A program made the translations under genes and the position numbers. This document shows positions 4,308 through 62,980 of a DNA stretch of 64,000 nt, one piece after another. Each line of letters opens with the position of its first letter. Positions within the stretch are counted from its first letter, which is position 1. The notes under the pieces are model-generated. The model saw nothing but the letters and a program-made list of their open reading frames with translations. It was not told the DNA's origin and did not search any database. Origin of the DNA: Isurus oxyrinchus (Eukaryota); the NCBI GenBank assembly GCA_026770705.1, contig JANJGN010000009.1:163928001-163992000 (forward strand), read 5' to 3'.

Positions 4308-7300
4308 GGGCAGGATTTTCCGAGCCCGCTGGCAGCAGGTGTAATAAGTGGCATGTGTGGATAATATGGTGTGAGCTGCTTCACAATGGCAGCATGAAGG
4401 CAGGTTGTGATCGTCCGCTCAGCCCACCTACAGCGGGTCGTGCTTCCCGCTATCGGTCAGCGGGGAGCTAATTGTTATACATCAGCATGTAAATAAATGG
4501 CCATCCTGCCAGGCTCTTGGAACCCGGCCGTATCCTCTGTCCACGTTAGCGGGAAAGCACGCCGACGTGATTCACAACAGCACACAGGCAATTTGTACCT
4601 GGTGGCCTTGACTCTGGGGGAAATGGGGTGAGTGAGCAGCAGCGTTCTCCACAGCTTGCCTGTTGTTTACAGGCTTCAGGGATGCCTGACCCCGGATGTG
4701 ACTGCTGAGAGGGGGGTCTCCGGGGGGGGTAAGAGCTGGCCAGCCTTGAAATGCTGAGGGCAAGGTGTCTAGTGGCAAGTGCTGGCTGCCTTGGAGGTGG
4801 ATACTGAGGGGGAGATGTCCAGGGTCATGTGATGACCAACCTCAGAGGCGAATGGTGTCGGTGGCTCCATGCTCAGGACCATCTCAGATGCAGCCATTAA
4901 ACTTAAGACGCATCTGGTGCTGCGTCCTCCTTCAGTACCTCAGCCCTTTCAGGAGCTGGTGCGCAGTATCACTGGTCACAGATGCTGGTGTGATGGGGGT
5001 CAGCCCCACCTTAAAGATGCTGAGAGCTCACAGTGAGAATGAGAGAACTCTGTGGGGCCTGCCCACTCCATTCTGGCAGCAATGCCCAGCTCCGCCGAGG
5101 TGCGGGCATCAGTAATGTGTCCAGGGAGTGTGAGGCTGGACCATCACTGTTATCTGAAGGTTGCACAGAGCACAGGGAAAAGGCCCTGGACTCATACACC
5201 TGCCCTTTATCTTGCACAGGAAGGTTTCACATCTGAGTGACAAGAACACTGCTCATCAGAACAAGGAGCCACAGGCAGGGTGACATTCTTAGGAGTTTAC
5301 TGACAATAGTGAACAATATGTACATGTGACCAACACCCGTACCCAGGCTGTGCAACTACATTTCCCTAACTTTCCTAACCCTGCCACTACATCTTGCTGC
5401 TCCCCAGACATCCACAGCAGAGGTGGAGCTAACCCGCTGCATGTGACGCCCTGTCTGTGATGACACTGGTGGGCGTCCTCTGGAGGGCTGAGACTTGGTG
5501 GGCCCCGGCCTGCTTTCGGGGTCCTGCTGTGTGGTAGTGGCCCCCTCCTCGGCCTGGGGGGCTGGAGCTGCTGAGATCCTAGGAAGAGGGGAGTCGGGTT
5601 GGCCAGTCACTCCCAGAACCTCCTGAGTCGATGGCCCCGGAGTGTGTACCTGCTGCTCCTCCTCCCTATCGGTGTCTGATGGCCCTTGGCTGACTCTGAG
5701 AGCGGAGGGTGTAGCTGGAGTGAGATTGAGCTAATTGTAACCCCTCTCTCATATACACTGTTGGAGGGTAAATATAGCATCAGCGATGGAGTTCACCATG
5801 CACAGCAGCACAGGAGTGACGTCCTGGGCCAAGGTCTCCATGGCAGCTGCCATCCTGCCAGTGTTGACCTCGGTGTATTGCAGCGCCGGAGTTATCACCT
5901 CAACCTGAAGATAGACGGACCCCTCCATCATGCCTTGCAATCTGAGGAGTGCAGCGGGCATCCCTTCCTGATGTTCCCGAGCTTGCCTTTGCAATTCCAG
6001 TAACTGTGACATGACCGAGCCCAGAGGCTGTCATCTGACTCGGACTCAGCAACATTGTGGCCTCCAGCATCCTCTGAGGGGCAGGGGACCTGGGAAGTCC
6101 CTGCCTCCACCTGCTGTAGATCAAACAGTGCGATGTGCTCCCAGATTGTGATCCTCAGGCTACTCTAAAGCTAGGTCCCACTGAGGTGTGTGTCTCTGCG
6201 CCGGCAGAGGCTGTGGGTGAGCTCTGTGACGGAACTTCAGGGAGAGTGCCTTCCGATTCCTCTTCAGAGGTTTCTTCAGGAGACCCTGGGTCATGGACTC
6301 TGTCGGCTGCTTCCCAGATGTGTCTGTGAAAGCAAGGGGAGATAATGAGTGCATGGCAGTGGCCTGTGATAAAGGACACATCACTCACAGCATGGTTATC
6401 TGATGGGTGTTGCACTGCTGGACCCTCACTTGATAGGGCAGTGCCAACCTTACCATCAGCACAGGACCGGCCCTGATCATTGCCGGTCAGCTGGATGGCT
6501 CTGCTTTCGAATTCTGTCAGAACTTTGATCTCCGGCATCCCTCCACCTGTCTCTGACCTTTCCCCCCTGTTGTGTGCCTGTTTGTCCTGTGTGGATATGG
6601 ATGGGGACAGTGTGTCAGGATGCCTGCAGGGGACAGATGATAAGTATGCCTGGCCTGTGTGGGTGGGGAGTGGTCCCGTGGATAGGGTGAGAACAATGAA
6701 GGTGTATGTGAACAGGTGAATGGTGACGTCCCATGCACTGGCAGTGAGTGAGGGCCCTGTAGATGTGTGATGGGTTTGTGAGTGTGTGAATTGGGTTTGT
6801 GAAAAGAGTGACTTACCCTGGAGGAACGGAGGAGATCATTCATCCTTTTGCGGTACTGGGTGACTGTCCTCCTCTGCAGGACGTTCACACTGACCACCGC
6901 TGCCTCCACCTCCCAAGCCGGGTTGGGTACTTTGCTGCCCACCCTGCGGTCAGAGCGTGGGGTAGAGCACATGCCGGTGCCCCTCCACGGCATCCAGCAG
7001 TCGCTTGAGGGACCCATCAATGAAGCAGGGGTCTGCAGTCTTTTTTCCCTCTGCTGGCCATGTCTCCCAGGCAGGGGTGGTGAGCTGGTGGCGATGAGTG
7101 CTTTGATGGTAGCTGCCTTTTAAAGATGGTGGCCAGCGTGATGTAACAGCGGGGTGATGGTGCGTGGGCGAATGAGAGCCCGCTTGCCATGGAAACGGTG
7201 TGTTTCACGGGGGTGAATAAATAATGAGCCGGGTTCAGGATGATATGGTGTGAAAACCCGTCATCTTCGTCGGCAGGTAGGACTCCATTTTACCCACCCG

Positions 7301-7337
7301 CTACCGCACTTAGTGCAATTCTGGGAAAATTCTGCCC
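4308..7337 (-). mobile_element. PIF/Harbinger transposon (non-autonomous, Myb/SANT-like gene relic)
   Basis: TIRs gggcaggattttc / gaaaattctgccc; inserted in a (CA)n tract; minus-strand PAWEVEAAVVSVNVLQRRTVTQYRKRMNDLLRS (Myb-like DNA-binding domain) followed by a gtaagt donor; no intact transposase seen. Confidence 0.8.
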
Positions 7338-8475: not shown

Positions 8476-8879
8476 GTGATCTCTACTGGATTCTACTGGA
8501 CTCATCAGAAATCCAGTAGGGATTCCAGTTGCTTCAGCTAAATTGAGCTGGAACCACAGCACCTGTTCCCAATTGGACTAGGAGTCAGAGAGGGACAATG
8601 CAAGAACTGGGGCATAAACTCTCATTCAGTGGGTGGTGCAGTCTGAGGAGGACCTGAGAAGGCTTCGAGAGAAAGGTGGGAAAGTGGGAGAAAGGGAGAC
8701 AGAGTCAGAAGCATCCGTTACATTTTCCCCAGAGTTGGTCACTCTGGCAGGATCAGCATCAGCCTCAGGGAAGGAGGCAACAGTGGAGGAGACGACAGTG
8801 GCGGAGGTGGCGGTGGCGATAGCAGCGGAACTGAAGGTTGCAGTGAAGTCGGCAACAACAGTGGAGAAGGATGAGGTGG

Positions 8880-9460: not shown

Positions 9461-10380
9461 GCGATGGAGGTAGTGAATGTGGGGGTGGAGGAGGAGACAT
9501 CAGCAGCGACAGCAGCAGAGACAGTGACTGAGGCTGAGGAGAGGGAGGCAGCGGCTGTGACAGTGACAGAGGGAGAAGCAGCGAAGGCGGCAGCAGCAAA
9601 GGCTGAGGCCACAGTGAGGGAGGCTGTGGAGAGGGAGCTGGAGGTGGGGCAGAGGCAGCGAGGAGACGGTACGAGACCAGGAGCAGCAACAAAACCTGCC
9701 TTGTGGTTTGTGAGGCTCAGGGCAATGGCGTCTGTGAGTTGATATCTTCCATGTGCCATGTGTGTGTCTCCGAGTCAGCGCACCGGACCACACTGCTTCT
9801 GCCCGATTAGGGCGCTTCAGTGGAGTCCGACACCAGTCCAGTGCCACCCAGCTCCCATTCCCGAGGACAGGTGATGGAACCTGCCCAGTGCCAGGATGAG
9901 CTGCTTGGTAAGATCGGGAGGTGGGAAGTAGAGAAGGCAGCCGACCAGGAAAAGCTGGAGGATATCTCCAGGATTACTGACTGTCTCCAAGAAGAAACTC
10001 TTGTAGCCTTCAGGCAGGGTATATATATGTTTATATAGCTGCAATTTACAGTTACCTGCCACATCCCTTTTAACACTTTCTAATGCAGCATCGCTCTGAT
10101 CAGAATCAGATTTATTGGGGTTGTGCAAATGTCTCCCCAGCCTCTGATATAACAATAAAAAGCTGCTTTTTCCTTTCCAGTTGCAGTAAGAGGAATGTCC
10201 CAGCCTCTCAATGTGACAGGGCAGCCCAGGACTATGTCTCTCAGTGCAACACCCAGGAACACGCACAGTGCAGCCCCCACATTGATTGTTCCAGTTGTGG
10301 GGGAAAGCGTGCATGTGGAGTAAGTGTACAATTGGGAAGATATTGATTCTCACAACATTTCCATGGCTTTAAATCAAATT

Positions 10381-10484
10381 GAGTTCTGTTGAAGGGTCAT
10401 GAGGACTCGAAACTTCAACTTTGCTCTTCTCCGCCGATGCTGACAGACCTGCTGAGTTTTTCCACTTATTTCTGTTTTTGTTTT
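10381..10484 (+). mobile_element. Short Penelope pLTR-derived insertion with hammerhead-like motif; absent from copy B
   Basis: Empty site at about 52778; GAGTT CTGTTGA A GGGTC ATGAG GACTC GAAA CTTC AACT. Confidence 0.75.
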
Positions 10485-10665
10485 ATTCTGAATGTTTTGT
10501 CTGGAGTCAATTACAAGCAGCGTAGACAATGTCTGTGTTTTAATTGTGTCTGGCTGTCCTCTTTTTTCACAATAAAATTTGCCAGGCTTTTACTCAACTT
10601 TTATTCTGAGTGTTTTTTCTGAGTTTATGGAGATATAACCTCATATTCTGCTGAAATGCACTTTA

Positions 10666-10928
10666 NNNNNNNNNNNNNNNNNNNNNNNNNNNNNNNNNNN
10701 NNNNNNNNNNNNNNNNNNNNNNNNNNNNNNNNNNNNNNNNNNNNNNNNNNNNNNNNNNNNNNNNNNNNNNNNNNNNNNNNNNNNNNNNNNNNNNNNNNNN
10801 NNNNNNNNNNNNNNNNNNNNNNNNNNNNNNNNNNNNNNNNNNNNNNNNNNNNNNNNNNNNNNNNNNNNNNNNNNNNNNNNNNNNNNNNNNNNNNNNNNNN
10901 NNNNNNNNNNNNNNNNNNNNNNNNNNNN
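10666..10928. other. Assembly gap (263 N)
   Basis: Run of n. Confidence 1.
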
Positions 10929-11149
10929 CCCACACACACACACACAAACGCAAACATATGCACACACACAAATATCCTCAATAACCCCACAAACACAGAA
11001 CGCACAGACAGCAATATCGTCAATCACCCCACACACACACACAGAAACATAAGCACACGCAGTAATATCTTCAATCATCCCCACACACACACACACATAC
11101 ACACACACACACACAAACCTAAGCGCACTCAGTAATATCCTCAATCACC

Positions 11150-11195
<46 letters not shown>

Positions 11196-11233
11196 TAAGC
11201 ACACACAGTAATATCCTCAATTACCACCCACCC

Positions 11234-11264
<31 letters not shown>

Positions 11265-11322
11265 GCACACACAAACATAAGCACACACACTAATATCCTC
11301 AATCACATACACACACACACAA
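10929..11322 (+). repeat. Compound (CA)n / AATATCCTCAATCACCCC minisatellite
   Basis: At least 6 units here versus about 1 in copy B (52960-53042). Confidence 0.9.
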
Positions 11323-12114
11323 ACATGGGAATGCGTGATTCAGTTCATTGTTGACATTCTTGATCCTCATTTGGCCCTGCAATATATCAGTGCACCAGCA
11401 ATAAACATCAACAGATAAACGGGAAAAGTAACCAGTTTGGACCAGTACTACTTACATCACCAGTATTTCTGGCTGTTCCTACTGGGCGACTGGTAATACC
11501 GCTGATATTGACAGTTTTACTGGTCCTACCTAGTTCAGAACTGGTCTTGATTTACCAGTTTGGAATTGGGATCTACTGGTGTCAGTATTGCAGGGACTTC
11601 CTTCTGGGAATGACAATAAATGAATGTGCTTCTCAACTCACTGCATTGTCAACCTGAGGTCCATTGCTTTAGACATGTAAGAGTGAAGACTTTACCCATG
11701 TGGAACAGATTGCCTTTAGAGGCCTGAGTTTCCTTCCGGTTTCAATGGTTAAAAACTTTTTGTTGTGTACAGAATGGTGAGGGTGGATGTTCAATCCTAA
11801 ATGAACGTAGTTCAGTTTCAGCGCAATTCATTAACTCCACAAATAATTTAACGGTTGATGACCAACGTAAATAAAGAGTTGAACTCTGAAAAAAATGTTT
11901 TCAAAGCTGTTGCACCTTGTCATGTAGATGGTGGCTTGAAACCACAAGAAAAATGTGCTGCTATTGTTAGGATTGAGGTGTGACAGAAAGCTGTGAATGT
12001 ACAACAGGTGTTAGTCACAAAATGAAGGGTTGTGTTTGCAAATGCGAGAAGAAGAAGAATTGCATTGTTACAGGGCAAACACGTTGGCAGTAAGTGTTTG
12101 AAGGTTAAGCAGCT

Positions 12115-15100
12115 TCAGCTCAGAACAGACACTGCGACGCATCAGGGTAAAGGAAAGTTACCTGGATTCTTTGTGCCAGGAGGCAATCACAGCTCTTAGG
12201 ACAGGGTGAGTGTGACTGCGAGTGCGGCAGGTAAAGGGACCCAGAGGGCAGGAGCGCAGGAGCCTCAGCCTTTACAATTGTTCTACAGGTCTGAACTTTT
12301 CTCAGCTTGTTTGGACAAGAGCAGCGGGTGAGCAGGGGGGATGAGCGAACTGACCTTGGCACCATGGCACAGGAAGCCATCCAAGTGGGGGGAGCAAACA
12401 GGAATGTAGCGGGAGTGAGGGATAGTATAGTCAGAGGGATTGACACTGTTCTCTGCAGCAAACAGCGTGAGTCCACACGACCATGTTGCCTGCCCGGTGC
12501 CAGGGTGTGGGATGTCGGCTCAGGGCTGGAGAGGAACTTGCATTGGGAGGGGGAGCACCCAGTCATCGTGGTCCATGTAAGCACCAACGACATAGGCAGC
12601 ACAGAGAAGGAGATTCTGCACAATCAGTGTGAGGAACGAGGCACCAGATTAAGAAGGAGAACCTCAAAGGTCATAACCGATGGATTATTACCTGAGCCAT
12701 GTGCAAATTGGCACAGGACAAATCAGACTCAGGAGGTGATTGTGGCTCAAAGGCTGGTGTGGAAGAAGTGGGTTCTGGTTTGTAGGGCACAAGAACCAGT
12801 ACTGGGGAAAGTGGGATCTGTACCATTGGGATGGTCTACACCTGAACCGTGCTGGGACCAGTGTTCTTGCAAGCCACATAACTAGGGAGGTAGAGAGGGT
12901 TTTAAACTAAATAGTGGACAACAGATCATATTTGGGATAATGTTGTAATTCAAGGAGCAGAAACAAGTCAAAAGATAAAGGTATTATTAGGAAAAATGAA
13001 AAACAGACACTGACAAGGGGGGATAGAGAGAACAAATCTAACAGTAAATCAACAGATGAAACTGAAGGGTATAAAAAGCATAAAAGGATAAAACTAAAAG
13101 CTCTGTATCTGAATGCATGTAGCATTCAAAACAAAACAGATGAACTGAGAGCGCACATAGAAATAAATAATTACAATTTGATAGCCATTACGGAGACATG
13201 GCTGCAGGAGGACATGGATTGGGATGTGAATATTGAAGGGTACAGGGTACTTAGGAAAGACAGGAAGCGAGGAAAAGGTGTAGCGGTGGCTCTGTTAGTG
13301 AATGATGGTATTAGTACAAGAGAGGAAGAAATAATTGGAGCTTGTCAGAAAGTCATGGTGATAATCATGGGAGACTTTAATTTACATATAGACTGGAAAA
13401 GTCAGATGGGCAAAGATAGCCTAACAGAGGAGTACATTGAATGTTTTCAAGATAGTTTCTGAGCGCGGGATGTTCTGGATTCAGCCAGACAGCAGGCTAT
13501 ACTAGACCTATTACTGTGCAATGAGATGGGAGGAATTAACGATCTCATCATGAAGATGCCCCTAGGAAACAATGACCATAATAGGATGAATTTTACATTC
13601 AGTTTGTAGGAGAGAGGAGTGGGTCTGAGTCTAAGGCGGGGATTTTTGGGCCCTGCTGCTGGTGGGACTCGCTGTGGGGGAGGCAGTTCCCCAGCCAGAA
13701 GCCCCACTGACTTGCGACAGGACAGGAAGGGCCGGCGAGCGGGTGTGGAAAATCCCACTGTAAGTTTTTAAACTTTAATAAGGGCAATTATAAGGACATG
13801 AAAGCTGGGATGGCTAAAGTGAATTGGCAAAATAGGTTAAGGTACAGGTCAATCGAAATGCAATGGCTCATATTTAAGGGGATATTTCAGAATGCACATT
13901 CCAACGAGTAAGAAAAAGTCTAAGTGACGGACACACCATCCGTGGTTAACTTGAATGTTTAAACATAATATCAAACTCAAAGGAAAAGTATATAATTCTG
14001 CAAAGACAGGTGGCAGGTCAGAAGATTGGACAGAATAAAAGGAACAGCAAAGAATGACTAAAAGACTAATAAGAAGGGAAAATTTAGTTTATGAGAGAAA
14101 GGTAGCCAGGAATCTAACAACAGATAGGAAGAGTTTTTATAAGTACGTAAAAAAGAAAAGAGTGAACAAAGTGTGTGCTGGTCCTATAGAAGGTGAGCCT
14201 GGAGAATTGATAATGGAAAACAAGGAGATGGTAGATGAATTGAACAGGCATTTTGCACCAGTCATATTGAAAATGTTAGAAGCTATTATTAAAGAAATTA
14301 TAGCAGGACACTTGGATAAGCTCATGGTCATCAGGCAGAATCAACATGGTTTTGTGAAAGGGAAATCTGTTCAACCAGTTTTTTGGAGTTCTTTGAGGAA
14401 GTAACATGTGCTGTGGATAAAGGGGATCTGGTGGATGTACTGTACTGAGGTTTCTAGAAGGCATTTCATAAGTTATTGTGGAAAATAAAAGCTCATGGTA
14501 TAGGGGGTCACATACTGGTATGGATAGAAAATTGTCTGGCTAACAAGAAACAGAGAGTAGGCATGAATGAGTCTTTTTTAGTTTGGCAAGATATAAGAGT
14601 GTTGTGGCACAGGGATCATTGCTGGGACCTCAACAGTTTGCACTTAATATCAACGACTTGGATGAAGGGTTTGAAGGGATGGTTTCTGAATTTGCTGATG
14701 ACACAAAAATAGGTAGAAAGTAAGTTGTGAGGGGGACATAAGGAGGCTACAAAAAGATATAGATAGGTTTAGACAGTGGGCACTGATCTGGAAAATGGAG
14801 TATAATGTGGGAAAATGTAAAATTGTCCATTTTGGCAGGAAGAATAAAAGAGAAGCATGTTATCTTAATGGTGAGAGATTGCAGAGCTCTGAGGTGCAGA
14901 GGGATCTGGCTGTCCTAGTGCATGAATCACAAAAGGTTAGTATGGAGATACCGCAAGTAATTAGGAAAGCTGATAGAATGATTTCATTTATTGTGAGGGA
15001 GATTGAATTCAAAAGTAGGGAAGTTATTCTTCATCTGCATAGGGCACTAGTGAGACCACATTTGGAGGACTCTGTACAGTATTGGTCACATTATTAAAGG

Positions 15101-15440
15101 AAGGATGTAAATGCATTGGAAGCAGTTCAGAGAAGGTTTACCAGGCTAATACCAGGAATGGGTGGATTGTCTAATGAGGAAACGTTGGACAGACTAGGCT
15201 TCTATCTGCTGGAGTTTAGAAGAGTAAGAGGCGAATTGATTGAAACATATAAGTTCCTGAGGGGAATTGACAGGGTGAGTGCAGAGAGGATGTTTCCTCT
15301 TGTGGGAAAATGTGGGGTCACCAATTTAGAACAGAGATTAGGTGATTTTTTTTAACTCAGAGGCTCGTGAGTCTTTGGAAATCTCTTCCTGAAAAGGTGG
15401 TGAAGGGGAGTCTTCGAATATTTTTAAGGCAGAGGTGGAG
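12115..15440 (+). mobile_element. Degenerate near-full-length CR1 LINE (SGNH-esterase ORF1, APE, RT)
   Basis: RDSIVRG..CLPGARV.DV..PVIVVHVSTNDI (ORF1); IAITETWL..IIMGDFN (APE); QHGFVKGKS, FADDTK, KCKIVHFG, LVRPHLE, AVQRRFTRLIPG (RT); stops, deletions and a small MITE at about 13635-13760. Confidence 0.93.
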
Positions 15441-15582
15441 TGGCACAAATCAGCAGTAACTTGTGGCATTTCACGATTCATTGGCTTTTCTCTTCATCGC
15501 CAAAAGTTGCTGACTGATTTTCACATTAAAAGAGGTGTTCGTAGTTCATACCCCATTATATTTTCAGTAAGTTCTAGCCCAT

Positions 15583-16185
15583 TGTTATAGAATTGATTTT
15601 CCAGGCAACTTTTCTGGGTGGAAACATTGAACTTTATTTACAAGACAGCAGCAGCAGCTACATGTGTGTATCTAACTCTATAACTAAAGGACAACTCCCC
15701 CATGGAGGTTCCCCATGCTGCAAACTGGTTGGATCACACAGATCATGTTCTCTTCCCAGAAAGGATTATTCTTAATGTTACAGTCCTACATTGATCAAAA
15801 CTATAATTATTACATTCCTCACCCTTTACCTTTTCTGTACATTTGTATTTACAAGGATGTTGATCTCATGACATTAAAATACTTCCACAGGTCATGAAAT
15901 TATAAGCTTGGTCTTTCAAGTGGTTTCCTGATCCATGTGGAACGTTTTAGTTTCACGACCTCAGATTCTCTGACAGGAACCACAGTCTCTGCAATAACAT
16001 CAGGTACCTCATTAGGCACAGGCAGATCAGTGTCGTCCACTCCGACAGAGACATCGGGCATGACTATCCTTGGCTGTACAATTTTAACAGGAACCACAGA
16101 TTCAACAATGGCTACAATTGGAACATCATTTTGTGGGGTATCTCCATTCTTTTTAAATCAATCAGATGCTAATGGGTGATCTACA
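15583..16185 (-). mobile_element. Gypsy-type LTR retrotransposon relic (pol C-terminus, PPT, 3' LTR)
   Basis: Minus ORF ends LKRSTWIRKPLERPSL*; polypurine AAAGGGTGAGGAA abuts an LTR starting TGTAA (15814) and ending TAACA (15583) with internal AATAAA; duplicated at about 57290-57885. Confidence 0.7.
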
Positions 16186-16329
16186 AAGATAAGCAAATAA
16201 AACCAAAATGTTAAGAAATCTCTGTATTCAATTTGACAACTAAATTTCAGAAATGAAAAAAATACTTCTGTTCCTGTGGGGTTTGTGGAAATTGGGAGGG
16301 GGTTCCTGTTCTAACTCACCTCACAATTC

Positions 16330-16540
16330 AGTATAAATACTAGCTCAGCTCATCATTATCCATATGTTCTAACTTTTTAACATTCTGGTTTTCAGGATTT
16401 TATATCCTCAATGAAAATTAGATTTGTTCTTTTGTTAAATATAACTGACAGAAGTTCACGTTCTTAGGGCCAGATTTCATCAGATGCCTTAATATGGCTT
16501 CATGACCTGGCTTCCTGCTATCTTCTTCCTCATTTAAATT
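16330..16540 (+). promoter_or_regulatory. Putative proximal promoter of gene A: TATA-like GTATAAATA and ETS/PU.1-like GGAA motifs
   Basis: gtataaata at about 16331; cttcctg at 16511 and tcttcttcctcattt at 16521-16535 (minus strand AAATGAGGAAG); retained in copy B at about 58030-58240. Motif match only. Confidence 0.3.
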
Positions 16541-16635
16541 CCTTGCATCATTTATATTAGACACTTATTTCAATGTGAGAAACAAGAGCTGAGTGTCTGG
16601 AAACAAGTTCTGTCCTGATCTTTGTGAACAAAACG

Positions 16636-16672
16636 ATGTGGATTTTGATTCTCCTCATTAGTTCTCTGCCCG
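16636..16672 (+). CDS. Gene A exon 1, signal peptide MWILILLISSLP
   Basis: ATG followed by a hydrophobic leader, then G|gtgagt (consensus donor, phase 1); identical in copy B. Confidence 0.9.
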
Positions 16673-19600
16673 GTGAGTGACAGCCAGACCTGGATATTCC
16701 AATAATCTGAGTTGGTTTAACTCTCGTGCGCTGGTTATACAGCAGATGTTTAAATATTTGGAGACATGCAAAGGCACAAAAGAGGTCTTGGGCACAGTGG
16801 GTTGTGTCTCTGTATCTGAGCCAGAAGCTCTGTGTTTGAGTCCCACTTCAGTTCTTGTTGAGAATGGAAGGCGCGTTCTAACCAGGCCCAACAGGTTGAT
16901 TATCAACCTGAAAATCTTCCAACAGACCGAAGGCTGGTGGGAAGAGGGTTTGAGATCCCAGTGCAACATGTTTGATGTGGAGTGGTGCCGCTCATTCTGT
17001 TGCCTCCGGAGGTTGTGACCTGTTTCAGGGAAAACAAGCTTTGGAAAGCAAAAGTAAACATGTGCTTTGTCTGCCGCATCCGTCTCTAGATGTGGGAAGT
17101 CTCCTAAGTCTAAAGGCACAAATTAGTCAGCAAAACCAAATGAATAATAATTGTGAAATATATTATTACCCTGTGAATTTACTATCACACCATGGGAATA
17201 GTTAACAAATAAACTGAACTGCATTATTAATTATGAATGATAAGTAAAGGAGAATTCAATTTTCAGAAATCTATGCAAGCAACATTTTGAAAATGAAAAC
17301 CTGTTTTAATTGGTAATTTTCAATATAATCTGATGTCCAGTATACACTGAAAACTGCAGCGGTAATAATCCCACAAATAAAACATGTCCCAAGTTGGCGA
17401 ATATTTCTGTTTTTTAAAGTACAGTTGATGAAATATTGTGTTATGAGGCTCTCTCAGTGACACTGTTCCTCACTGGTAGATGGTTGGTCTACATCACTCT
17501 TCTCATAAGTAGCCTTTTCTTGTTCATTCTTTAACTTTAAGAAACTTGATTTTCCTCATCACTCAGTATTGCCACCTCTCCATCATTTTCAATGAATCTA
17601 TTTTATAACACACAATGTTAAACTCCCAGCCCCATCTGCTCTAAGCCACTACTTTAACTTCCGCAAAATATTTTGTGCCTCTAGCTTATCAATTTTATGC
17701 AGAATACTTGATGTACTTATGGACAGGAAACTGAATCATGTTTCTGTCGGTTTGGCAATCTTCTTCTTTTCAATCCTTCCTCTTTCTGATCTGATCTCTT
17801 TCCCATTTGCTTTTCAACTGTAACTTTTCCTGTATCTTTTTCCTTTTCTTCACTTCTCTCTAGCCATTTAATTATTTTCAATCTCTCTTTTGTTATTTTA
17901 GTGCAAACTCTTTCTCCACAGCATGAGTTTCTCTCCCAGCAAGGCCATTGGTCTCATGAACGTTCAAGTCAAGGCATCCAAATCCCTACCTCAGGAATCC
18001 ATCCATCCTTCAAGGCCACCTATCACACAACCTCTCAAACCTTCAAGGCCTTCAAATCCTACCTATGGACATCCCTAACTCATTCAAGATCTGAACACCC
18101 CCTCCTGCAAGGACCCAAGCATCCCCCGCACCCCACCCACCTCAGATCAGAGCAGGGAACTGTCGGCTCCTGTGACCCCCTCCACACTGCTCCCCAACCA
18201 ACTGCAAATCAGGCCTGTCAATCAGACTGGTTTCTGGAACCTCTTGATGATGTCATACGCAGTCTGGGGTTAAACCCTACAGTATGGGGCAGAACCTCAA
18301 TTTCCAGGTTCCCCACACTCTACCAACCCCTGCCAATAAGTCAAGAAAATGCCCCAAATATCTCCCAAATAAATCATTGTCTGAGACGCGCTTTGGAACA
18401 CAGTGAGGCTCTGATAAGTGTCTATATGAATGATTACTCTCATCACAAACTTGATGGAATTTAACTCATTAAAATGCATCTGTTTGAATTAAGCAGTTAT
18501 TTCCAGTTCAGTTTCTCAAATGTTGTCTCCTCAGTTTCAGGTGCATTGTGGGCAAAAAAAGAAGTAACAGGAGTTGTGGGAAGAGCGATCACAATAGAAT
18601 GTCACTATGATGCACGTTACAAGTCACATATAAAATATTGGTGTTGCGGCTGGAGTCGCCAGTGTAATATTTTAGTATTGAAAAATCAGCAAAATGGAAG
18701 AATATCGATCACAGATAACAAGGCAACAGGAATATTTATTGTTACTATGGTGGATCTTCACTCAAGAGATACAGGATGGTACAGCTGTGGTATTGACAAA
18801 CCTGGCCTCCTCGATTCAATGTTTGCTGTGTGGCTACAAATATCTTACGGTACATTTCTTACTGATTTTCTTTATTATTCTCAACTGAAATGTCTGCTCA
18901 ATGTTTTATCTGAGAGGAAACATGACAGCTCCGATATCCCGAGGCTCCACAGCAATGCAGAGACTTAAAGGTAAAGGGCAGAGGTCGGGAAATCCAACTC
19001 ATGTTACCCAAACCCAATTCATGGCCTGTCAAACATGTCAGAGTTGAACTTTACAAGTGAACTAAACGGAAATTGAGAAGTTGTTTTGATGGTAAAAGAA
19101 GCCTCTTTATTAATTGTTGAGACATTGGGCTGGATATTCAGCCTCAAAGCGGGTAGGGGCAATTCGGAAAATTCCCCGCTCGGCCTTGGAAGAAAGTGCC
19201 CACAAAGGTGGGATTTCCATTGCTGGGAGCTGTGCCCAGGCTGCAGTCTGGCCAGCCACACCAGGAAGAAATGCAGAGGCAGCCACAGGGACTGCCGGCT
19301 GCGGAGACGGGCTGTTTCAAAGGCCCCTCCTTAATGCCCTTGGACTTTGTAACAGCTAAACTCAAAACACAAAGGCCCTTCACCCCTCACCCCCCACAGC
19401 CCACAAAGAGGGTGGGTATAAGGGGAAAATTTGTCATGAGAGTTCTTGGAGGTGGGTGGAAGTGTACAGCTTGAAGTCAGGAGCATGATGGATTATAAGG
19501 CGTGGGTAAAGGGACATAGGGGGCATTAACGGCCAAACGTGATGGATGAGGATGTGACTTGACATAGGGGGCATGAGATGGACCTTTTGAACTTAGCTCT

Positions 19601-22600
19601 TAAAAGGTCCCCTCATGCAAACCAGTGTTTACAGCTCCTCTGAGGGGCTTTGGACTACGACTCATTCAAAACCTGGCCCGAGTCCATGAAAATTGCAGAG
19701 GAGTAGGACGTGTCTGTCTCCACAATGGAGGCAGCCAGGTTGGAGTGTAAAAAACAAAAATACAAACAAAAAACTGCGGATGCTGGAAATCCAAAACAAA
19801 AAGTAAGAAATACCTGGAAAATCTCAGCAGGTCTGGCAGCATCGGCGGAGAAGAGCACAGTTGATGTTTCGAGTCCTGATGACCCTTCAACAGAACTAAG
19901 TGAAAAGAAGAGAGGGGTGAAATATAAGCTTGTCTAAGGGGTGGGGGTGGGGGTGCGGGTGGATAGAGAAGTGGGGAGGTGGTTGTTGGGACAAGCAAGC
20001 AGTGATAGGAGGAGATAACCAAAAGATGTCACAGACAAAAGAACAAAGAGGTGTTGAAGGTGGTGATATTATCTAAAAGAATGTGCTAATTAAGAACGTA
20101 TAGCAAGACAAGCAAGGTACAGATAGGTCATGTGGGGGTGGGGTGAAATAAGACTAAAAGGGCATAAAATGTATAGATAAATGATCAGTGGAATACATTA
20201 AAAATATTGCAAATAGGTGGGAAAAGAAAAATCTATATAAATTATTGGAAAAAAGAAAAAGGATGGGGAAGAAATGGAAAGGGGGTGGGAATGGAGGAGG
20301 GAGTTCAAGATCTAAAATTGTTGATCTCAATATTCAGTCCAGAAGGCTGTAAAGTGCCTAGTCGGAAGATGAGGTGTTGTTCCTCCAGTTTGCGTTGAGC
20401 TTCACTGGAACATTGCAGCAGGCCAAGGAACAGACATGTGGGCAAGAGAGCAGGGTGGAGTGTTGAAATGGCAAGCGACAGGGAGGTTTGGGTCATTCTT
20501 GCGGACAGACCGCAGGTGTTCTGCAAAACAATCACCCAGTCTGCGTTTGGTCTTTCCAATGTAGAGGAAACTGCATTGGGAGCAACGAATGCAGTAGACT
20601 AAGTTGGGGGAAATGCAAGCGAAATGCTGCTTCACTTGAAAGGAATGTTTGGGCCCTTGGACGGTGAGGAGAGAGGAATTGAAGGGGCAGGTGTTGCATC
20701 TTTTGCGTGGGCATGGGGAGTTGCCATAGGTGGGGGTTGAGGAGTAGAGGGTGATGGAGGAGTGGACCAGAGTGTCCCAGAGGGAACGATCCCTATGGAA
20801 TGCCACCGGGGTGGTGAAGGGAAGATGTGTTTGGTGGTGGCTTCATGCTGGAGTTGGCGGAAATGGTGGAGGATGATCCTTTGAATGCGGAGGCTGGTGG
20901 GGTGATAAGTGAGGACAAGGGGGACCTTATCATGTTTCTGGGAGGGAGGAGAAGGCGTGAGGGTGGATGCGCGGTAGATGGGCCGGACACGGTTGAGAGC
21001 CCTGTCAACGACCGTGGGTGGAAAACCTCAGTTAAGGAAGAAGGAGGACATGTCAGAGGAACTGTTTTTGAAGGTAGCATCATTGGAACAGATGCGACGA
21101 AGGCGAAGGAACTGAGAGAATGGGATGGAGTCCTTACAGGAAGCGGGGTGTGAGGAGCTGTAGTCGAGGTAGCTGTGGGAGTCGGTGGGTTTGTAATGGA
21201 TATTGGTGGACAGTCTATCACCAGAGATTGAGACACAGAGGTCAAGGAAGGGAAGGGAAGTGTCAGAGATGGACCATTTGAAAATGATGGAGGGGTGGAG
21301 ATTGGAAGCAAAATTAATAAATTTTTCCAGGTCCAAACGAGAGCATGAAGCAGCACCGAAGTAATCATCAATGTACCAGAGAAAGAGTTGTGGGAGTGGG
21401 CCGGAATAGGACTGGAACAAGGAATGTTCCACATACCCCATAAAGGGACAGGGGCTCATGTGGGTACCCTTAGTCACACCTTTTATTTGGAGGAAGTGAG
21501 AGGAGTTAAAGGAGAAATTGTTCAGTGTGAGAACAAGTTCAGCCAGACGGAGGAGAGTAGTGGTGGATGGGGATTGTTCGGGCCTCTGTTCGAGGAAAAA
21601 GCTAAGGGCCCTCAGACCATCCTGGTGGGGGATGGAGGTGTAGAGGGATTGGATGTCCATGGTGAAGAGGAAACAGTTGGGGGCAGGGAACTGGAAATTG
21701 TTGATGTGACGTAAGGTGTCAGAGGAATCACGGATGTAGGTGGGAAGGGACTGGACAAGGGCAGAGAAAAAGGATTCAAGATAACGAGAAATGAGTTCCG
21801 TGGGGCAGGAACAGGCTGACACGATCAGTCTGCCGGGACAGTTCTGTTTGTGGATTTTGGGTAGGAGGTAGAAGCGGGCCGTCCGAGGTTGGGCGACTAT
21901 CAGGTTGGAAGCTGTGGGAGGAAGATCCCCAGAGGGGATGAGGTCAGTGACAGTCCTGGAAACAATGGCTTGATGTTCAGTGATGGGGTCATGGTCCATG
22001 GAGAGGTCGGAGGAAGTGTCTGCGAATTGACGCTCAGCCTCTGTGAGGTAGAGGCCAGTGCGCCAGACAACAACAGCACCACCCTTGACAGCGGGTTTGA
22101 TGACAATGTTGGGGTTGGATCTGAGGGAACGGAGTGCAGTAAGTCACAAAACAACTGTTTGCTGAAATGCTAAACAAAGATAAATATTGAGATAAAAGCA
22201 AAGAACTGCGGATGCTGGAAATGCAAACCAAAGACAGAAATAGAAATATCTGGAAAAACTCAGCAGGTCTGGCAGCATCGGTGGAGAAGAGCACAGTTGA
22301 TGTTTCGAGTCCTCATGACCCTTCAACAGAACTAAGTAACAATAGGAAAGGGGTGAAATATAAGCTGGTTTAAGAGGAAGGTGGGTGCGTTGTTGGGACA
22401 AGAAGCCAGTAATAGGTGGAGATAACCAAAAGATGTCACAGACAAAAGAACAAAGAGGTGTTGAAGGTGGTGATATTTTCTAAAGGAATGTGCTAATTAA
22501 GGGTAGAAAGCAGGACAAACAAGGTACAGATAGACCTAGTGGGGGTGGGGTGGGGTGAAGGAATACTAAAAATTCTAAAAATTAGAGATTAACAGTGGAT

Positions 22601-25600
22601 GGAAATACATTTAAAAATAATGGAAATAGGCGGGAAAAGAAAACTCTATATAAACTATTGGAAAAAAACAAAAAGTGGAGGAAGAAACGGAAAGGGGATG
22701 GAGATGGCGGTTGGGGCCAGGGAACTGGAAATTGTTGATGTGACGTAAGGTGTCAGAGGAATCACGGATGTAGGTGGGAAGGGACTGGACAAGGGGAGAG
22801 CGAAGGGAGTCAAGATAATGAGAATTGAGTTCCGTGGGGCAGGAAGAGGCTGACACGATCAGTCTGCCGGGACAGTCCTGTTTGTGGATTTTGGGTAGGA
22901 GGTAGAAGCGGGCCGTCCGAGGTTGGGAGACTATCAGGTTGGAAGCTGTGGGAGGAAGATCTCCAGAGGAGATGAGGTCAGTGACAGATCTGGAAGCAAT
23001 GGCTTGATGTTCAGTGGTGGGGTCATGGTCCAGGGAGAGGTAGGAGGAAGTGTCTGCGAGTTGACGCTCAGCCTCCACAAGGTAGAGGTCAGTGCGCCAG
23101 ACAACAACTGCACCACCCTTGTCAGCGGGTTTGATGGCAATGTTGGGGTTAGGCCTGAGAGAATGGAGTGCAGTATGTTCAGAGAGAGACAGGTTAGAAT
23201 GGGTGAGAGGAGCAGAGAAATTGAGACGACTAATGTCACGCCGACAGTTCTCAATGAAAAGATCAAGAGAAGGTAAGAATCCAGAGGGAGGGGTCCAGGT
23301 GGAGGGAGAATATTGGAGGTGGGTAAAAGGATCCGTTGAATGGGGAGAGGACTCCTGCCCAAAGAAGTGAGCCCGGAGACGAAGACGGTGGAAGAAGAGT
23401 TCAGCATCATGCCGAGCCCGAAATTCATTGAGGTGAGGACGTAAGGGTATGAAACTAAGTCCTTTGCTGAGCACTGAACGTTCAGCATCAGAGAGGGGAA
23501 GGTCAGGGTGTATAGTGAATACCCGACCGGGGCTGGGATTGGAAGATGGGGTGGGGACAGAGGGACAGGCAGGGTTGGAGGGTCCTGGATGTGTGTTGGT
23601 ATCACTGAGTTGTTGCAGCTTGCGTTCCTTAGCACTTGAGAGAAAGAGAAAAGGTTTCTTGTTGAGGCGACGGATGAGACGAAGAATAGAATGAAACTGG
23701 GGGCACGGGCAGCTTTGGAAAGGGGTACGGCGATGCTGCTGGAGGGAGAGGTCGAATGTGTTCATATGGCAGCGCATGGCACTGAGTGTGGATCTCAGAA
23801 TGCAACGGGAACAGTATTCCGAGGAATGTTGTATGTCCCAGAGATACCTGTAATCCTGGGTTGGTTCGAATCCGATGGAATTTCAGTTGAGATCCACATG
23901 GGGTAAGTCGGAGACGGAGACAGTCACTGAGAAAGGAAATATGGCTGTGAAAGCGGGTTTTAGTAAACACCTTGTCAAACACCAGGAGAGAAATGGAAAG
24001 CAATGAAGGTAAATAAGGCAAAAGAGAGATATGAAAATCCTGACGGAGAGTAGTACAAAACTTCTTTAAGGTAGGGATGTCTTGAAGAGAAGTGGCAGTC
24101 AATTAAACACGGATAAAAGCAAAAAACTGCGGATGCTGGAAATTCAAAACAAAAACAGAAACATAAATAGCTGGAAAAACTCAGCAGGTCTGGCAGCATC
24201 AGCGGAAAGAGCACAGTTGATGTTTCGAGTCCTCATGACCCATCAACAGAACTAAGTAAAAATAGGAGAGGGGTGAAATATAAGCTGGTCTAAGGGGTGG
24301 GGGTGGGTGGTGGTGGAGGGAGAAGTTGTTGGGACAAGCAAGCAGTGATAGGAGGAGATAACCAAAAGATGTCACAGACAAATGAACAAAGAGGTGTTGA
24401 AGGTGGTGATATTATCCAAAAGATTGTGCTAATTAAGGATGGGTAGCAGGACAAGCAAGGTATATGGTGGCATCATGCTGCAGTTGGAGGCGGAAATGGC
24501 GGAGAATGATCCTTTAGTGCGGAGGCTGGTGGAGTGATAAGTGAGGACAAGGGAGACCTCTTCATGTTTCTGGGAGACTTGCTGCCTTCTTCCAGTGAAG
24601 CTCAATGCAAACCGGAGGAACAGCACGTCATCTTCCGACTAGGCACTTTAGAGCCATTGGGACTGAATATTAAGTTCAACAATTTTAGATCATAAACTCC
24701 CTCCTCCATCCCCACCCCCTTTCTGTTTCTTCTCCCTCCTTTTTCCTTTTTCCAATACTTTATATAGATTTTTCTTTTCCCACCTATTTCCATTATTTTT
24801 AATGTATTGCACCGATCATTTATCTATACCTTTTAAGCCCTTTAAGTCTTATTTCACCCCACCCCCACTAGAGCTATCTGTACCTTGATTGTCCTGCTAT
24901 CCATTCTTAATTAGCACATTCTTTTAGATGATGTCACCACATTCAACACCTCTTTGTTCTTTTGTCTGTGACATCTTTGGGTTATCGCCTCCTATCACTG
25001 CTTGCTTGTCCCAACAACTACCGCCGACTTCTCTCTCCACCGCCCCCCCCGCCCCCCGACCCATTAGACCAGCTTATATTTCACCCCTTTCCTATTTTTA
25101 CTTCGTTCTGTTGAAGGGTCATAAGGACTCTAAATGTCAACTGTGCTCTTCTCTGCCGATGCTGCCAGACCTGCTGAGTTTTTCCAGGTTGGGGAGTTCT
25201 GGGTGTGGCTTTTGAATGATCCAGCCTGTATCCTTTAAAGCTGCTCCCAAAATCACACAACCCAGGAACGCAGTTGGGAATCCCAGAATTAGGACACACC
25301 CGCCATTTTTAAAGGGCTCCTGAATCAACCCAAGTTGGTGAAATCCAGGCCGTCACTTTGGTCTGAAGGCTGCACAAAGCACAGGGTAGAGGTCCTGGAC
25401 TGAGACACCTGCCTTTATCTTGTACAGAAAGTGTTCACATGTGAGTGACATGAACATTGCTCATCAAAACAAGGAGCGATAGGCAGGGAGACATTCTTTG
25501 GAGTTTATTGACAATAATGAACAGTATGTACAAGTGATTAACACCCGTGCCCAGGACGTGCAACTGGCCTAAATAGCCAAGTGGTTATGGTACTGGGTTT

Positions 25601-28600
25601 GTAACCCCAAGATCAGGAATTCAAATCTCACAATGGCAAAATATGAAACAATGTAACTTGATCTGAATAGGAACAGATGGAAATGTGTTTGTACTCAAAA
25701 GAGTTACATTTCCTCAACTCTCGAGGCCTTCCGTGCTCAGTGGGGACTGGGGTGCTTTATTGACCCCTTTTAGCACTTTTTGGTTTAAAGTTGTAAGTTT
25801 CCTTTAAACTTCGTTCTTGGTTTTACAGCTGACCTAAATTAGGGGCTGTCCCTTATTTATCCTAATTTTGTAAATTTAGTTTAATTGTTTTGACTCTATA
25901 AGAGTTACATCTCCTCAACCCCCGTAATATGAGCCGCCTCGGGGACATGTTCTCTGTGCCATTTGGCACAGCAAAGAGGAGCTTTTTGTACGGACTGCTG
26001 CTGCACATCTTCCATTTTCTCGCCCTTCTCCGCCGCCTGGATATGCCCTGGCATGCCTTGTTGCCTTCCGGCAGCGGAGGCCCCCGATGGGAGGCCCTCT
26101 GAGGAGGTGTCCTCCCCCTTTCTATCGGGGACCTGGGTTCGAGGGTGTTGCATGCAGCAGTCCCCTATAATAGGAGAATTCATAGGTTCACGGACTCCCA
26201 AGACACATGCCCTTTTCGTGGTCTTGTGGAGTCCGTGGACCATGCATACATAGGGTGTGGTAGGTTGCACTCCCTTTTCAGTTACTTGATGAACCTTTTG
26301 TTAATGTTTTGTTTGCACTTCAGCCCCACGCTCCTGATCTATGGACACCCGGTGCGGAAGGGGGTCGGAAAGGAGGAGGACCTCCTCGTGAACCTGCTCC
26401 TGGGCCTGGCCAAGTTGGCCATTAACAGGTCCAGGCAGCAGGCGATCGAAGGGGGAGTCCCGCCCAATTATTTATCCCTCTTCCGCGGCTACGGTCGCAG
26501 CCGGATGTCCCTGGAAAGGGAGCATGCGGTGTCTGCCGGCACTCTCGAACCCTTCCGTGCTCGGTGGGCACCGCGGGGACTGGGGTGTTTTGTTGACCTC
26601 TTTTATCACATTTTGGTTTAAAGTTGTAAGTTTCCTTCAAACTTTGTTCTTGGTTTTACAGCTGACCTGAATTAGGGGCTGTGCCTGATTTATCCCAATT
26701 TTGTTAATTTAGTTTAATTGCTTTGACTCTATAAGAGTTACATCTCCTCAACTCTCGAGACCTTCTGTGCTCGATGGGTGACCACGGGGGTTGGGGTGCT
26801 TTATCCAGCCTCTTAATCACATTTTGGTTTGATGTTGTAAGTTTCCTTTAAATCCTGTCTTTGGTTTTGCAGTGACCCTAACTTAGGGGCTGCGTTTTAT
26901 TTTGTTCCTCATTTTGTTAATTTAGTTTATTTGTTTGGCTTTAAAAGAGCTACATCTTCTCAACTTTCCTAATCCTCCCGCTACATCTTGGTGCTCCGCA
27001 GACATCCAGAGTGGAAGTAAAGACAGTCTGCTGACTGCTATGCTCTGTCTGTGATAACTTTGGCGGGCGTCCTCTGGAGGCCTGAGGCCTGGAGGGCCCC
27101 GGCTTCCTTTCGAGGTCCTGCTGTGTGGCATTACCACCCTCCTTGGCCTGTGGACCTGGAGCTGTCAAGGTCACAGTAAGAGGGGAGTTACCAGGATGAA
27201 TGGCCCCGGAGGGTACACATGTTGATCCTTCTCGCTATTGGCTGAATTAGCGAGCAGCAGGGGTAGCTGAAGTGAGATTGAGCTGCCCGCACCCCTCTCT
27301 CATACACACTGTCAGGGGCCAACTATACATCAGCAATGGAGTTCAGCCCCACAGCAGTGTAGGAACGGTGCCCTGGACCAACATCTCCAAGGCACCTACG
27401 ATCCTACCAGTGTTGACCTTGGTGCATTGACATGCCAGCGCTATCACCTCAGAGTGCAGGTGGATGGATTCCTCCATATTAACTGAAAATTTTATTTAAA
27501 AAGAGAGAAGGTCACCATCTAATCCTTTATTAACTGTGTTTAATTGTATGCAGTGGTAGCATTAAACAGATGTCTTCAGGTCTGGGCCTTGTACACACTG
27601 TCTCCTGGGAGTTCTGACCAGCTACCCTGCTGTCTTCAGGGAGATCTGGCCAACCATCCTGCTGTGTTCTGGGAGATCTAAGCAGCTACCCCCTCACATA
27701 GGCTTCAGTATTCCCTTAAATGTGTTTCTTCTCTTTCATCTCTCTTTGTTGCAACCAGTCTGAAAAGAAATGCTTTTCTTCAAAGGATTGATTAAATCAA
27801 TCTTTACCTCTTAGACTTGTAAAAACAAACTTACTCTATGTTTATGTCACGTCCTTACACCTTTTTACAACCTGCATATATCTCCCTTTGAACTAAAACA
27901 ACACAATTCAAACTATTTCTGTTATTGCTTCATGTACAAGTCTGTTGTAGTTCTTTTTTGTTTATTAACATATCAAAACCACTTCAAATTGTTGACTTTT
28001 GACCCTATCCACTGATGAGGCAGTCCATGTCATGGAACCATAACCTTAAATCTGGAGATAGGCTCGTCAGGGATGTCAGGAATCACTTCTTCACGCAAAG
28101 TATAGCGGAAATCAGGAACACTCTCCTCAAAAAAGCTCTTGAACTTAAATGAAAATTTCAAAACTGATTGACAGATTTTATCTGGTAGCAATATTCGGGT
28201 TATGGGACCCCGGTAGGTAAATGGACAGAAGATACTGGTCAGTTGGGATTTAATTGAATTGTGGAACAGGCTGAAGGGGCTGCATGTCCGAATCCCTTTT
28301 CCATGTTCTGGAGCCCCAGTTAATTTTTCAGTGGTCTGGGCCTTGTGAGTAACAATGTGCTGTGAAACAAGCTCACAAACAGTTAGCATTTCAAAGAGAC
28401 ACTTTCCAATCACCAGGCAAACTGTGACCTGTGTTGTTTCAGAGTACAGTTTGTGACAGTGAAAGCAGTGAAGGCCTGCCAAACCTCATTAAAATCAAGT
28501 TCTGTCGAAGGGTCATGAGGACTCGAAACGTCAACTCTTTTCTTCTCCATCGATGCTGCCAGACCTGCTGAGTTTTTCCAGGTAATTCTGTTTTTGTTTT

Positions 28601-61410: not shown

Positions 61411-62980
61411 TCACTTTGGTCTGAAGGCTGCACAAAGCACAGGGTAGAGGCCCTGGACTGAGACACCAGCCTTTATCTTGTACAGAAAGTGTTCACATGT
61501 GAGTGACATGAACATTGCTCATCAAAACAAGGAGCGATAGGCAGGGAGACATTCTTTGGAGTTTATTGACAATAATGAACAGTATGTACAAGTGATTAAC
61601 ACCCGTGCCCAGGACATGAAACTACATCTCCTCAACCAGGCGGTGTCTGGCGGCACCGTCGAGACGTTCCGTGCTCGGTGGGTGACCACGGGTGTTGGGG
61701 TCCTTTATCCAGCCTCTTAATCACATTTTGGTTTGATGTTGTAAGTTTCCTTTAAATCATGTCTTTGGTTTTGCAGTGACCCTAACCTAGGGGCTGCGTT
61801 TTATATTATCCCTCATTTTGTTAATTTAGTTTATTGGGTTGGCTTTAAAAGAGCTACATCTTCTCAACTTTCCTAATCCTCCCGCTACATCTTGGTGCTC
61901 CGCAGACATCCACAGTGGAGGTAAAGACAGTCTGCTGACTGCTATGCTCTGTCTGTGATAACTTTGGCGGGCGTCCTCTGGAGGCCTGAGGCCTGGAGGG
62001 CCCCGGCTTCCTTTCGAGGTCCTACTGTGTGGCATTAGCACCCTCCATGTCCTGTGGACTGGGAGCTGTCAAGGTCACAGTAAGAGGGGAGTTACCAGGA
62101 TGAATGGCCCCGGAGGGTACAAATGTTGATCCTTCTCGCTATGGGTACCCAATGGCCATTGGCTGAATCCTTGAGGAGCAGGGGTAGCTGGAGTGAGATC
62201 AAGCTGCCTGCACCCCTCTCGCATATACACTGTCAGGGGCCAACTATGCATCAGCAATGGAGTTCAGCCCCGCAGCAGTGTAGGAACGATGCCCTGGACC
62301 AACGTCTCCATGGCAGCTGCCATCCTACCAGTGTTGACCTCGGTGCATTGACATGCCGGCGCTATCACCTCAGAGTGCAGGCGGACGGACTCCTCCATTG
62401 TGCCTTGCAATCTGAGGGGTGCAGCAGATATCCCTTCCTGATGTTCCCGCGTTGGCCTTTCCAGCTCCAGCAACTGTGACATGACCAAATCCAGAAACGC
62501 GTCACCTGACTCAACCTCAGCAAATTTATGGCCTCCAGCTGCCCACTGAGTGCCGGACACCTGGGAAGCCCCTGCCGCTGCCAGCTGTGGATCAGGCAGT
62601 GCGATTTGCTCACCAGCTGTGACCCTGAGTCTACTCTAAAGCTAGATCTCACCGAGGGGTGTGCCTCTGCGCTGGTGGAGGGTGAGGGTGAGGGCAGTGA
62701 CGGTACATCAAGGAGGGTCCCTCCAGGTTCCTCTTCAGAGATTTCTTTGGGGATTACTTGGTGTCCCTGGGTCTCCATCGGCTGTTACCCAGATGTGCGT
62801 GTGGAAGCAAGTGGAAATATTTTGTGCATGGCAGTGGCCTGTGAAACAGGACACATCACTCACAGCATGGTTGTCTGATGGATGTTGCACTGCTGGACCC
62901 TCACTTGGCTGAGGACCGCCGACCTCACCATTAGCACAGGATTGGTCCAGGCCGTTGCCGGCCAGCTGGATGGCCCTGTT
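61411..62980 (-). mobile_element. Harbinger fragment (copy B) with one Tx1 3' insertion at 61637-61854
   Basis: Homologous to about 5140-6500; TSD tacatctcctcaac (61623-61636) / tacatcttctcaac (61855-61868). Confidence 0.82.

Follow-up and report, generated by a model that had tools for sequence, protein, structure and literature searches.

A tRNA-headed SINE of Isurus oxyrinchus, likely inserted by a Tx1-type LINE, and its hotspot in a Harbinger-derived transposon

The stretch of DNA analysed here (the window) comprises 64,000 nucleotides (nt) of Isurus oxyrinchus, positions 163,928,001 to 163,992,000 of contig JANJGN010000009.1 in assembly GCA_026770705.1. Within it, a Harbinger-derived DNA transposon, the host, carries a stack in which a 139-bp tRNA-headed short interspersed element (SINE) lies beside three fragments of Tx1-like long interspersed elements (LINEs). 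How does such a SINE move, and does it need the LINE and the transposon in which both are found? A first reading made from the sequence alone (the sequence-only reading) proposed a target-specific SINE parasitising a Tx1 LINE that itself parasitises the transposon, a three-tier dependency. Our analysis points to an abundant SINE whose insertion is likely the work of a Tx1-type LINE enzyme, which would recognise a 12-nt hairpin common to both 3′ ends; the Harbinger site is a hotspot, and most copies lie elsewhere. In addition, Tx1 subfamily B, the youngest one, sits nested within SINE sequence. The features concerned are listed by window position.

25566..25704, plus strand: SINE copy (family nt 5–143), 95% identical to the copy at locus L041
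25567..25638, plus strand: tRNA-like head with A-box-like and B-box-like motifs and TGT at the anticodon position (Rfam RF00005, 19.4 bits, sub-threshold)
25693..25704, plus strand: terminal 12-nt predicted hairpin (4-bp stem, 4-nt loop), common to Tx1 subfamily A ends
25705..25718, plus strand: 14-nt target word copy, spacer 1
25719..25905, plus strand: Tx1 subfamily A 3′ fragment of 187 nt, 91% identical to the 3′ part of 25920..26738, with an identical end
25920..26738, plus strand: Tx1 subfamily A 3′ fragment with the C-terminus of open reading frame (ORF) 2 and the 3′ untranslated region (UTR), flanked by spacers 25906–25919 and 26739–26752
26753..26950, plus strand: 3′ fragment of a more distant Tx1-like family, 81% identical to subfamily A and 94% to the copy B fragment
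25348..25565, no strand assigned: Harbinger-derived host, left of the target (repeat family D7)
26951..27490, no strand assigned: target word (26951–26964) and Harbinger-derived host, right of the target (repeat family D6)
61637..61854, plus strand: copy B of the locus, one Tx1-like fragment with target-site duplication (TSD) 61623–61636 / 61855–61868
4331..7337, no strand assigned: unoccupied Harbinger-derived host copy with the empty target at 5357–5370 and a Myb-like exon remnant, minus strand, near 6820–7062

The element at 25566–25704, with its tRNA-like head and the loop TTTGTAA, is as the sequence-only reading described it, and its observations on the stack also hold: the SINE is outermost, has no left TSD, is absent from copy B, and joins the same target nucleotide as the Tx1 fragments with a 3′ end in common. 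After the SINE terminus, AAAAGAGT, comes the 14-nt target word (25705–25718), which is repeated after every Tx1 fragment (25906–25919, 26739–26752 and 26951–26964). The SINE is leftmost in the stack, all three LINE fragments to its right are 5′-truncated, and the third has a different 3′ stem for which pairing is still predicted. Compared with the empty site at 5357, the SINE was inserted without duplication and without deletion. Copy B (from 61406) has only the third Tx1-like fragment, the SINE and both subfamily A fragments being missing there.

A search of the same genome with the window SINE gave 603 candidates, of which 40 were scored. The 28-place motif of the SINE 3′ end has 20,156 exact matches in this genome, Tx1-B tails included, against 0 for a reversed control, and a single-copy element, which the sequence-only reading had named as an outcome contrary to it, is thus excluded. 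The family is 137–143 nt long (142–143 nt, with a common variant 5 nt shorter). Dispersed copies matched at 94–97% identity in that search and start 4 nt further 5′, so that the window copy is slightly 5′-truncated. Ten near-identical copies at C9 163.49–164.23 Mb have both flanks in common; they were for this reason counted as one insertion, multiplied by segmental duplication, and rejected as evidence of targeting. The family is short, non-coding, dispersed and of high copy number, and bears TSDs, a fixed 3′ end and 5′ truncations, as does a tRNA-derived SINE (SINE2). The head aligns to the tRNA model at scores below the Rfam gathering threshold: three of five further copies scored 23.9–25.7 bits, and four of all six copies scanned aligned along the whole model at 19–26 bits, under the gathering score of 29. 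ARAGORN called no tRNA in the window or among the SINE units of eight loci. The sole basis of the putative threonine assignment is the TGT in the anticodon-position loop TTTGTAA. There is no T4 run inside the SINE, the first one downstream of the window copy being 63 nt away, which is compatible with transcription by RNA polymerase III (Pol III). The only ARAGORN call was a tRNA-Lys(CTT)-like sequence (L041:1300–1373, 36.8 bits) lying 13 nt before a SINE, with a similar one beside the SINE of L029; it could belong to a different SINE family or have arisen by a jump to a tRNA.

What connects the SINE with Tx1 is its 3′ end. The SINE carries no poly(A), microsatellite or CR1/L2-type tail; copies at random sites with a poly(A) or CR1/L2-type tail would have spoken against the sequence-only reading. 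Its commonest terminal 12-mer (132/343) is identical to the GAAA-loop form of the subfamily A end. In Tx1 type A ends the 4-bp stem is conserved and the loop has between 3 and 6 nt; for the commonest type B end (47 rows) no fold is predicted. The four bases that follow the terminal AAAGAG are TTAC in 97 of 166 units, TATC in 41 and ATCA in 10, and divide the junctions into a TAC class and an ATC class, the latter mostly continuing into SINE nt 51. For the insertion sites, the first 100 listed SINE matches in genome order (C1, 0–13 Mb) were grouped into 48 clusters. Among the 47 clusters with both flanks, 27 share a word of at least 10 nt across the insertion, compared with 7 of 230 mismatched control pairs. 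Their TSDs are mostly 14–15 nt long and begin with TAC or TAT; similarly, those of Tx1 subfamily A are mostly 14–15 bp and start with TAC. Mobilisation of the SINE by Tx1, as suggested by the sequence-only reading, is likely, given the same 12-nt hairpin end, target nucleotide and TSD type as in Tx1-A.

The identification of the partner as a Tx1-type LINE is supported by its ORF2 domains and by its protein matches. Full-length copies have an ORF1 of about 714 amino acids (aa) with a weak zinc knuckle and an ORF2 frame of 1,303 aa, in which Exo_endo_phos, RVT_1 and a weak zf-RVT were found (L262), in accordance with the two-ORF layout of the Tx1 clade. The named proteins among the 120 matches listed are called 'transposon TX1', and the alligator protein of that name shows 41% identity over 1,112 columns. 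The match to human L1 ORF2p covers residues 8–869 only (273 bits). The 3′ UTR motif of Tx1 has 3,571 matches and the 5′ UTR motif 252, and an 815-nt Tx1 fragment of the window has dispersed relatives at 92–93%. Thirty Tx1 3′ ends taken in genome order comprise 10 of type A and 20 of type B. L262 is a full-length copy with open ORFs and its own TSD at a non-host site, and both long frames (714 and 1,303 aa) are open in the Tx1-B copies of L262 and L272, so that the family may be recently active. Elsewhere in the genome, nine Tx1 5′ ends lie head-to-tail at about 7.4-kb spacing (C2 61.83–61.89 Mb), and 28 closely spaced Tx1 3′ fragments occupy C1 28.19–28.21 Mb.

The recognition of the host as Harbinger by the sequence-only reading is supported. 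In related copies, a DDE_Tnp_4 frame and a Myb/SANT-like frame lie on opposite strands, which is the Harbinger layout. PF13359 was found in both transposase frames (E 1e-8 and 1.5e-9) and PF13873 in one of two Myb-like frames (E 7e-4, under the curated cut-off). In the window, a pair of inverted ends can be seen at 4331 / 7337, and Pfam gave nothing in the decayed Myb exon of the host copy or in the Tx1 C-terminal frame. The preferred target lies between the convergent transposase and Myb-like genes. Pairwise identity is 80% for the host (14 copies), 95.5% for the SINE (12 dispersed units) and 98% for Tx1-B, which indicates that the host is far older than either. The spacers reproduce each host's own target variant; the insertions are therefore later than the divergence of the hosts and did not hitchhike with them.

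Seven of the 48 SINE clusters (15%) are at the Harbinger site, all at one host nucleotide. Nine host matches were obtained at first; those near L050 and L013 lie off the target site and were left uncounted. The remaining 41 clusters, not shown at the host site, are dispersed, mostly at TACA-type sites, and many have TSDs of their own. A further 27 loci, picked for likeness to the window copy, gave five host matches; this set is biased and was kept separate. The junction between SINE end and host target has 394 exact matches, and the host target motif itself at least 785. When sites were picked from the host side, 6/30 were occupied, three SINE-first and three LINE-first. Among 20 clusters of Tx1 3′ ends, at least 8 have host sequence within 1.5 kb, and in the other 12 it is absent over that distance. 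Assuming even 20,000 host sites among about 4×10^7 TACA words, the 15% share amounts, by rough arithmetic, to a few-hundred-fold enrichment. The Harbinger site is a strong hotspot and not a requirement. The expectation that copies sit at the Harbinger target is thus true of the nucleotide used whenever a copy is there, and fails for most clusters; 'target-specific' overstates the habit of the SINE.

The SINE is found in tandem arrays as well. At least two unit ends are present in 31/48 SINE clusters and at least five in 10/48, and L143 and L144 contain 48 and 68 SINE ends within 10 kb, i.e., arrays of about 50–70 units. Most array spacers equal the local TSD; others are foreign. For instance, the target word of the C7 array, distinguished by an array-specific last base, has nine matches, seven on C7 and one each on C1 and C33, and on C1 and C33 it sits between two SINE units. 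Similarly, the word of the C27 array was found again at a host site on C24. Such foreign spacers are most simply explained by read-through RNA that spans several units.

The SINE is also joined to Tx1 at both ends of the LINE. The full-length set was collected with the 5′ motif and hence probably consists of subfamily B copies. SINE nt 51–62 plus an 11-nt piece matching the host target word precede all 30 sampled Tx1 5′ ends (17 clusters), and the identical join was found in 20/20 loci of a second set, 7 of which overlap with the first 30. The whole or nearly whole head (nt 1–62) is present in 12 rows, representing 4/17 clusters; elsewhere a SINE or LINE piece is joined at nt 51. On the other side, the type B 3′ end continues into SINE nt 51, the tail being nt 51–142, at 1,820 exact junctions. 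This tail join was seen in 35 of the 38 Tx1-B copies with a visible 5′ junction, and one further copy shares only 11 nt. The 20 loci fetched with the 5′ motif include 16 that are full length to the SINE join, 2 internally short ones and 2 without a visible 3′ end. In L262 a single TSD encloses SINE, LINE and SINE tail, and in several Tx1-B copies one TSD surrounds the LINE plus the SINE tail. A contig of organism B, from another sequencing run, spans the head-LINE join; no piece bridging the LINE-tail join occurs among the sequencing-run pieces listed, which proves nothing. A Tx1 that entered the SINE at nt 51 and duplicated 12 bp would leave nt 51–62 on both sides of the LINE, as is seen, and we infer that the resulting composite became the master of subfamily B. 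The copy of the host target word at the Tx1-B 5′ end implies that an ancestor of Tx1-B sat at a host site. Service of the SINE head as a Pol III promoter of the full-length LINE was considered and is unlikely, since the LINE has 30 runs of T4 or longer, the first at about nt 530, and its head is broken off within the B-box region. At L187:1348–1428 (C1, about 164.22 Mb), most of a U6 snRNA (82.7 bits) lies directly before the SINE head of a full-length Tx1, a fusion that is likely a template jump to U6.

The pathway we propose is as follows. SINE RNA would be produced by Pol III reading past the T4-free element. Tx1 ORF2 would recognise the hairpin, nick TACA- or ATCA-type sites and prime reverse transcription behind the hairpin, where a few read-through bases may pair with the target DNA and so aid target-primed reverse transcription. 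As the site would be regenerated at every insertion, stacks could grow. One Tx1 insertion at SINE nt 51, with nt 51–62 duplicated, would then have created the composite that served as the master of subfamily B.

Several observations weigh against this account of the SINE. The sequence common to the SINE and Tx1 amounts to 12 nt only; the window head, aligned along the whole Rfam tRNA model, scores 19.4 bits (E 0.28) against the gathering score of 29; the assignment of the partner to the Tx1 type, which is supported, is based on database names and domain content. Moreover, 20 of the 47 clusters have no TSD of at least 10 nt, and the 48-cluster sample represents 13 Mb of one contig and includes some ends that are Tx1-B tails. 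The SINE is present in 24 sequencing runs of 12 studies (four coded organism labels and one metagenome), the matches all being contigs of mostly guessed RNA status that are silent on RNA ends or expression. Finally, spacer patterns in L144 and L146 are periodic. Most described SINEs pair with CR1/L2, RTE or L1, and the short common end, together with fragments of another LINE in the window (RVT_1 match at 21028–22143), would suit a SINE moved by one of these LINEs that meets Tx1 at the hotspot through a similar DNA preference. Insertions by CR1/L2, however, end in microsatellite tails and lack TSDs, and those by L1 end in poly(A); the SINE has neither kind of tail. SINE and Tx1 co-occupy sites to the exact nucleotide with equal TSD length, are interleaved in the stacks and are joined at both LINE ends, and a partner other than Tx1 is very unlikely. 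Alternatively, the arrays and the host association could have arisen mainly at the DNA level, by unequal exchange, segmental duplication or hitchhiking in the transposon. The ten segmental duplicates on C9 and nine near-identical tandem LINE junctions on C2 illustrate such events, and the array periodicity implies that block duplication of DNA or multi-unit copying also adds units. Nevertheless, three different element types make up the window stack, the junction bases are not constant from unit to unit, foreign spacers can be followed to other chromosomes and the host is much older than the SINE, which makes amplification mainly at the DNA level improbable. The obligate arrangement, with the SINE needing Tx1 and Tx1 needing Harbinger, can appeal to the single host nucleotide used by all seven host-associated clusters, the 394 exact junctions, the 8/20 Tx1 clusters at the host and the host word at the Tx1-B 5′ end. 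Obligate use is refuted by the 41 SINE clusters elsewhere, and the share of 7/48, from a small one-contig sample, falls below the more than 20% of flanks that defines a target-specific SINE in PMC4494074. As 12/20 Tx1 clusters likewise lack a demonstrated host site, a need for the transposon is not supported, and with host copies older and decayed, the 'three-tier dependency' of the sequence-only reading was overstated; an obligate version of it is extremely unlikely.

For subfamily B, the alternative is that its SINE ends do not descend from one composite, and that they arose many times, through template jumps or because SINE nt 51 was targeted repeatedly. Nt 51 is the commonest internal start of SINE units, and 65 of 183 nt-51 motifs are preceded not by their own head but by the end of a SINE or of a Tx1-B. 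The sequence before nt 51 on full-length LINEs is variable, the whole head remaining in few clusters, jumps to other RNAs occur, as with U6 in L187, and Tx1-B inserted with its own end into non-SINE ATC sites in L129 and L225. These observations speak against a single master. On the other hand, the 5′ join is uniform in both sets of loci, only one of the 38 Tx1-B copies with a visible 5′ junction (L114) resembles a new insertion into nt 51 that has a TSD of its own, and several copies have one TSD enclosing LINE and SINE tail. Recurrent joining is thus rather unlikely, yet deserves weight beside the single composite. A more far-reaching version of the composite reading may be put forward tentatively, as a possibility about which we are doubtful: Tx1-B may have jumped into its own SINE, travel wrapped in it and prime with the SINE hairpin tail, while read-through RNA bases behind the hairpin steer the targeting. 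Copies would then return to the site they came from, to nt 51 of the SINE and to the hotspot in Harbinger, and array spacers would be a log of earlier insertion sites.

The window contains other repeats besides the stack. A direct duplication (about 8700–19100 and 50350–60800, 41.7-kb offset, 95–98% identity) belongs to a segment present in at least 10 copies at C9 163.49–164.23 Mb. A 27-bp tandem repeat with open frames occupies 8702–9649 and recurs from 50356; its plus-strand frame encodes a Glu/Val/Ala-rich 9-residue repeat, with no evidence for a gene. The region 19800–25190 consists of nested, inverted fragments of the other LINE mentioned above, unrelated to Tx1, and of short repeats with a tail common to that LINE.

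A tRNA-SINE driven by Tx1 through a 12-nt recognition end would make it possible to ask, with a very small substrate, how a reverse transcriptase with a target preference chooses its RNA and DNA. Thousands of junctions are present in the genome, together with spacers traceable from source to offspring and Tx1 copies with open frames. The wrapped LINE, if true, would be a LINE that has adopted the ends of its parasite. No description of the SINE family, or of a LINE that multiplied within its SINE, was found in the searchable full-text literature, a scope outside which Repbase, Dfam and subscription journals fall; the family may already be catalogued in Repbase or Dfam. A term search of the main text of PMC13343379 gave no mention of Tx1, tRNA or Harbinger.

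The closest known systems are described in the accessible passages of PMC4494074 (Kojima 2015), to which the following comparison refers. The crocodilian SINEU-1, SINEU-2 and SINEU-3 are inferred to use Tx1-Mar machinery and target Mariner-N4_AMi, with 13%, 23% and 90% of copies at the host site. Tandem SINEU copies sandwich a TSD, and some Tx1 families have U1/U2 heads. The three-tier arrangement is therefore known in kind. Like SINEU, the present SINE probably uses Tx1-type machinery, favours one position within an old DNA transposon (about 15%) and has tandem copies around a TSD, and here too a Tx1 carries the same small-RNA head as the SINE. Unlike SINEU, its head is tRNA-like rather than U1/U2 (Rfam head scans give tRNA) and its host is Harbinger. 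For SINEU-1 no common 3′ end was found, whereas the terminal hairpin here is common to SINE and LINE. Tx1-9_AMi, which targets Harbinger, and Xenopus Tx1L and Tx1D are likewise Tx1-clade LINEs with a preferred DNA-transposon site. No partner SINE is described for them in those passages, and the site here lies between convergent genes instead of roughly 300 bp inside the 5′ end. Among cartilaginous fish, HE1, SacSINE1 and SINE2-1_CM also have tRNA-derived heads; according to the part of PMC3747384 consulted (Table 1), these shark SINEs have CR1-group LINE partners, and they are set apart from the present family, with its likely Tx1 partner, by descriptions only. The arrays of about 50–70 units, and a LINE that bears the 3′ half of the SINE plus head sequence, also distinguish the present system from SINEU. 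Relative to the literature searched, what is new, besides the long arrays with spacers that include target duplications from other chromosomes, is Tx1-B nested in a SINE, with SINE-derived sequence at both ends.

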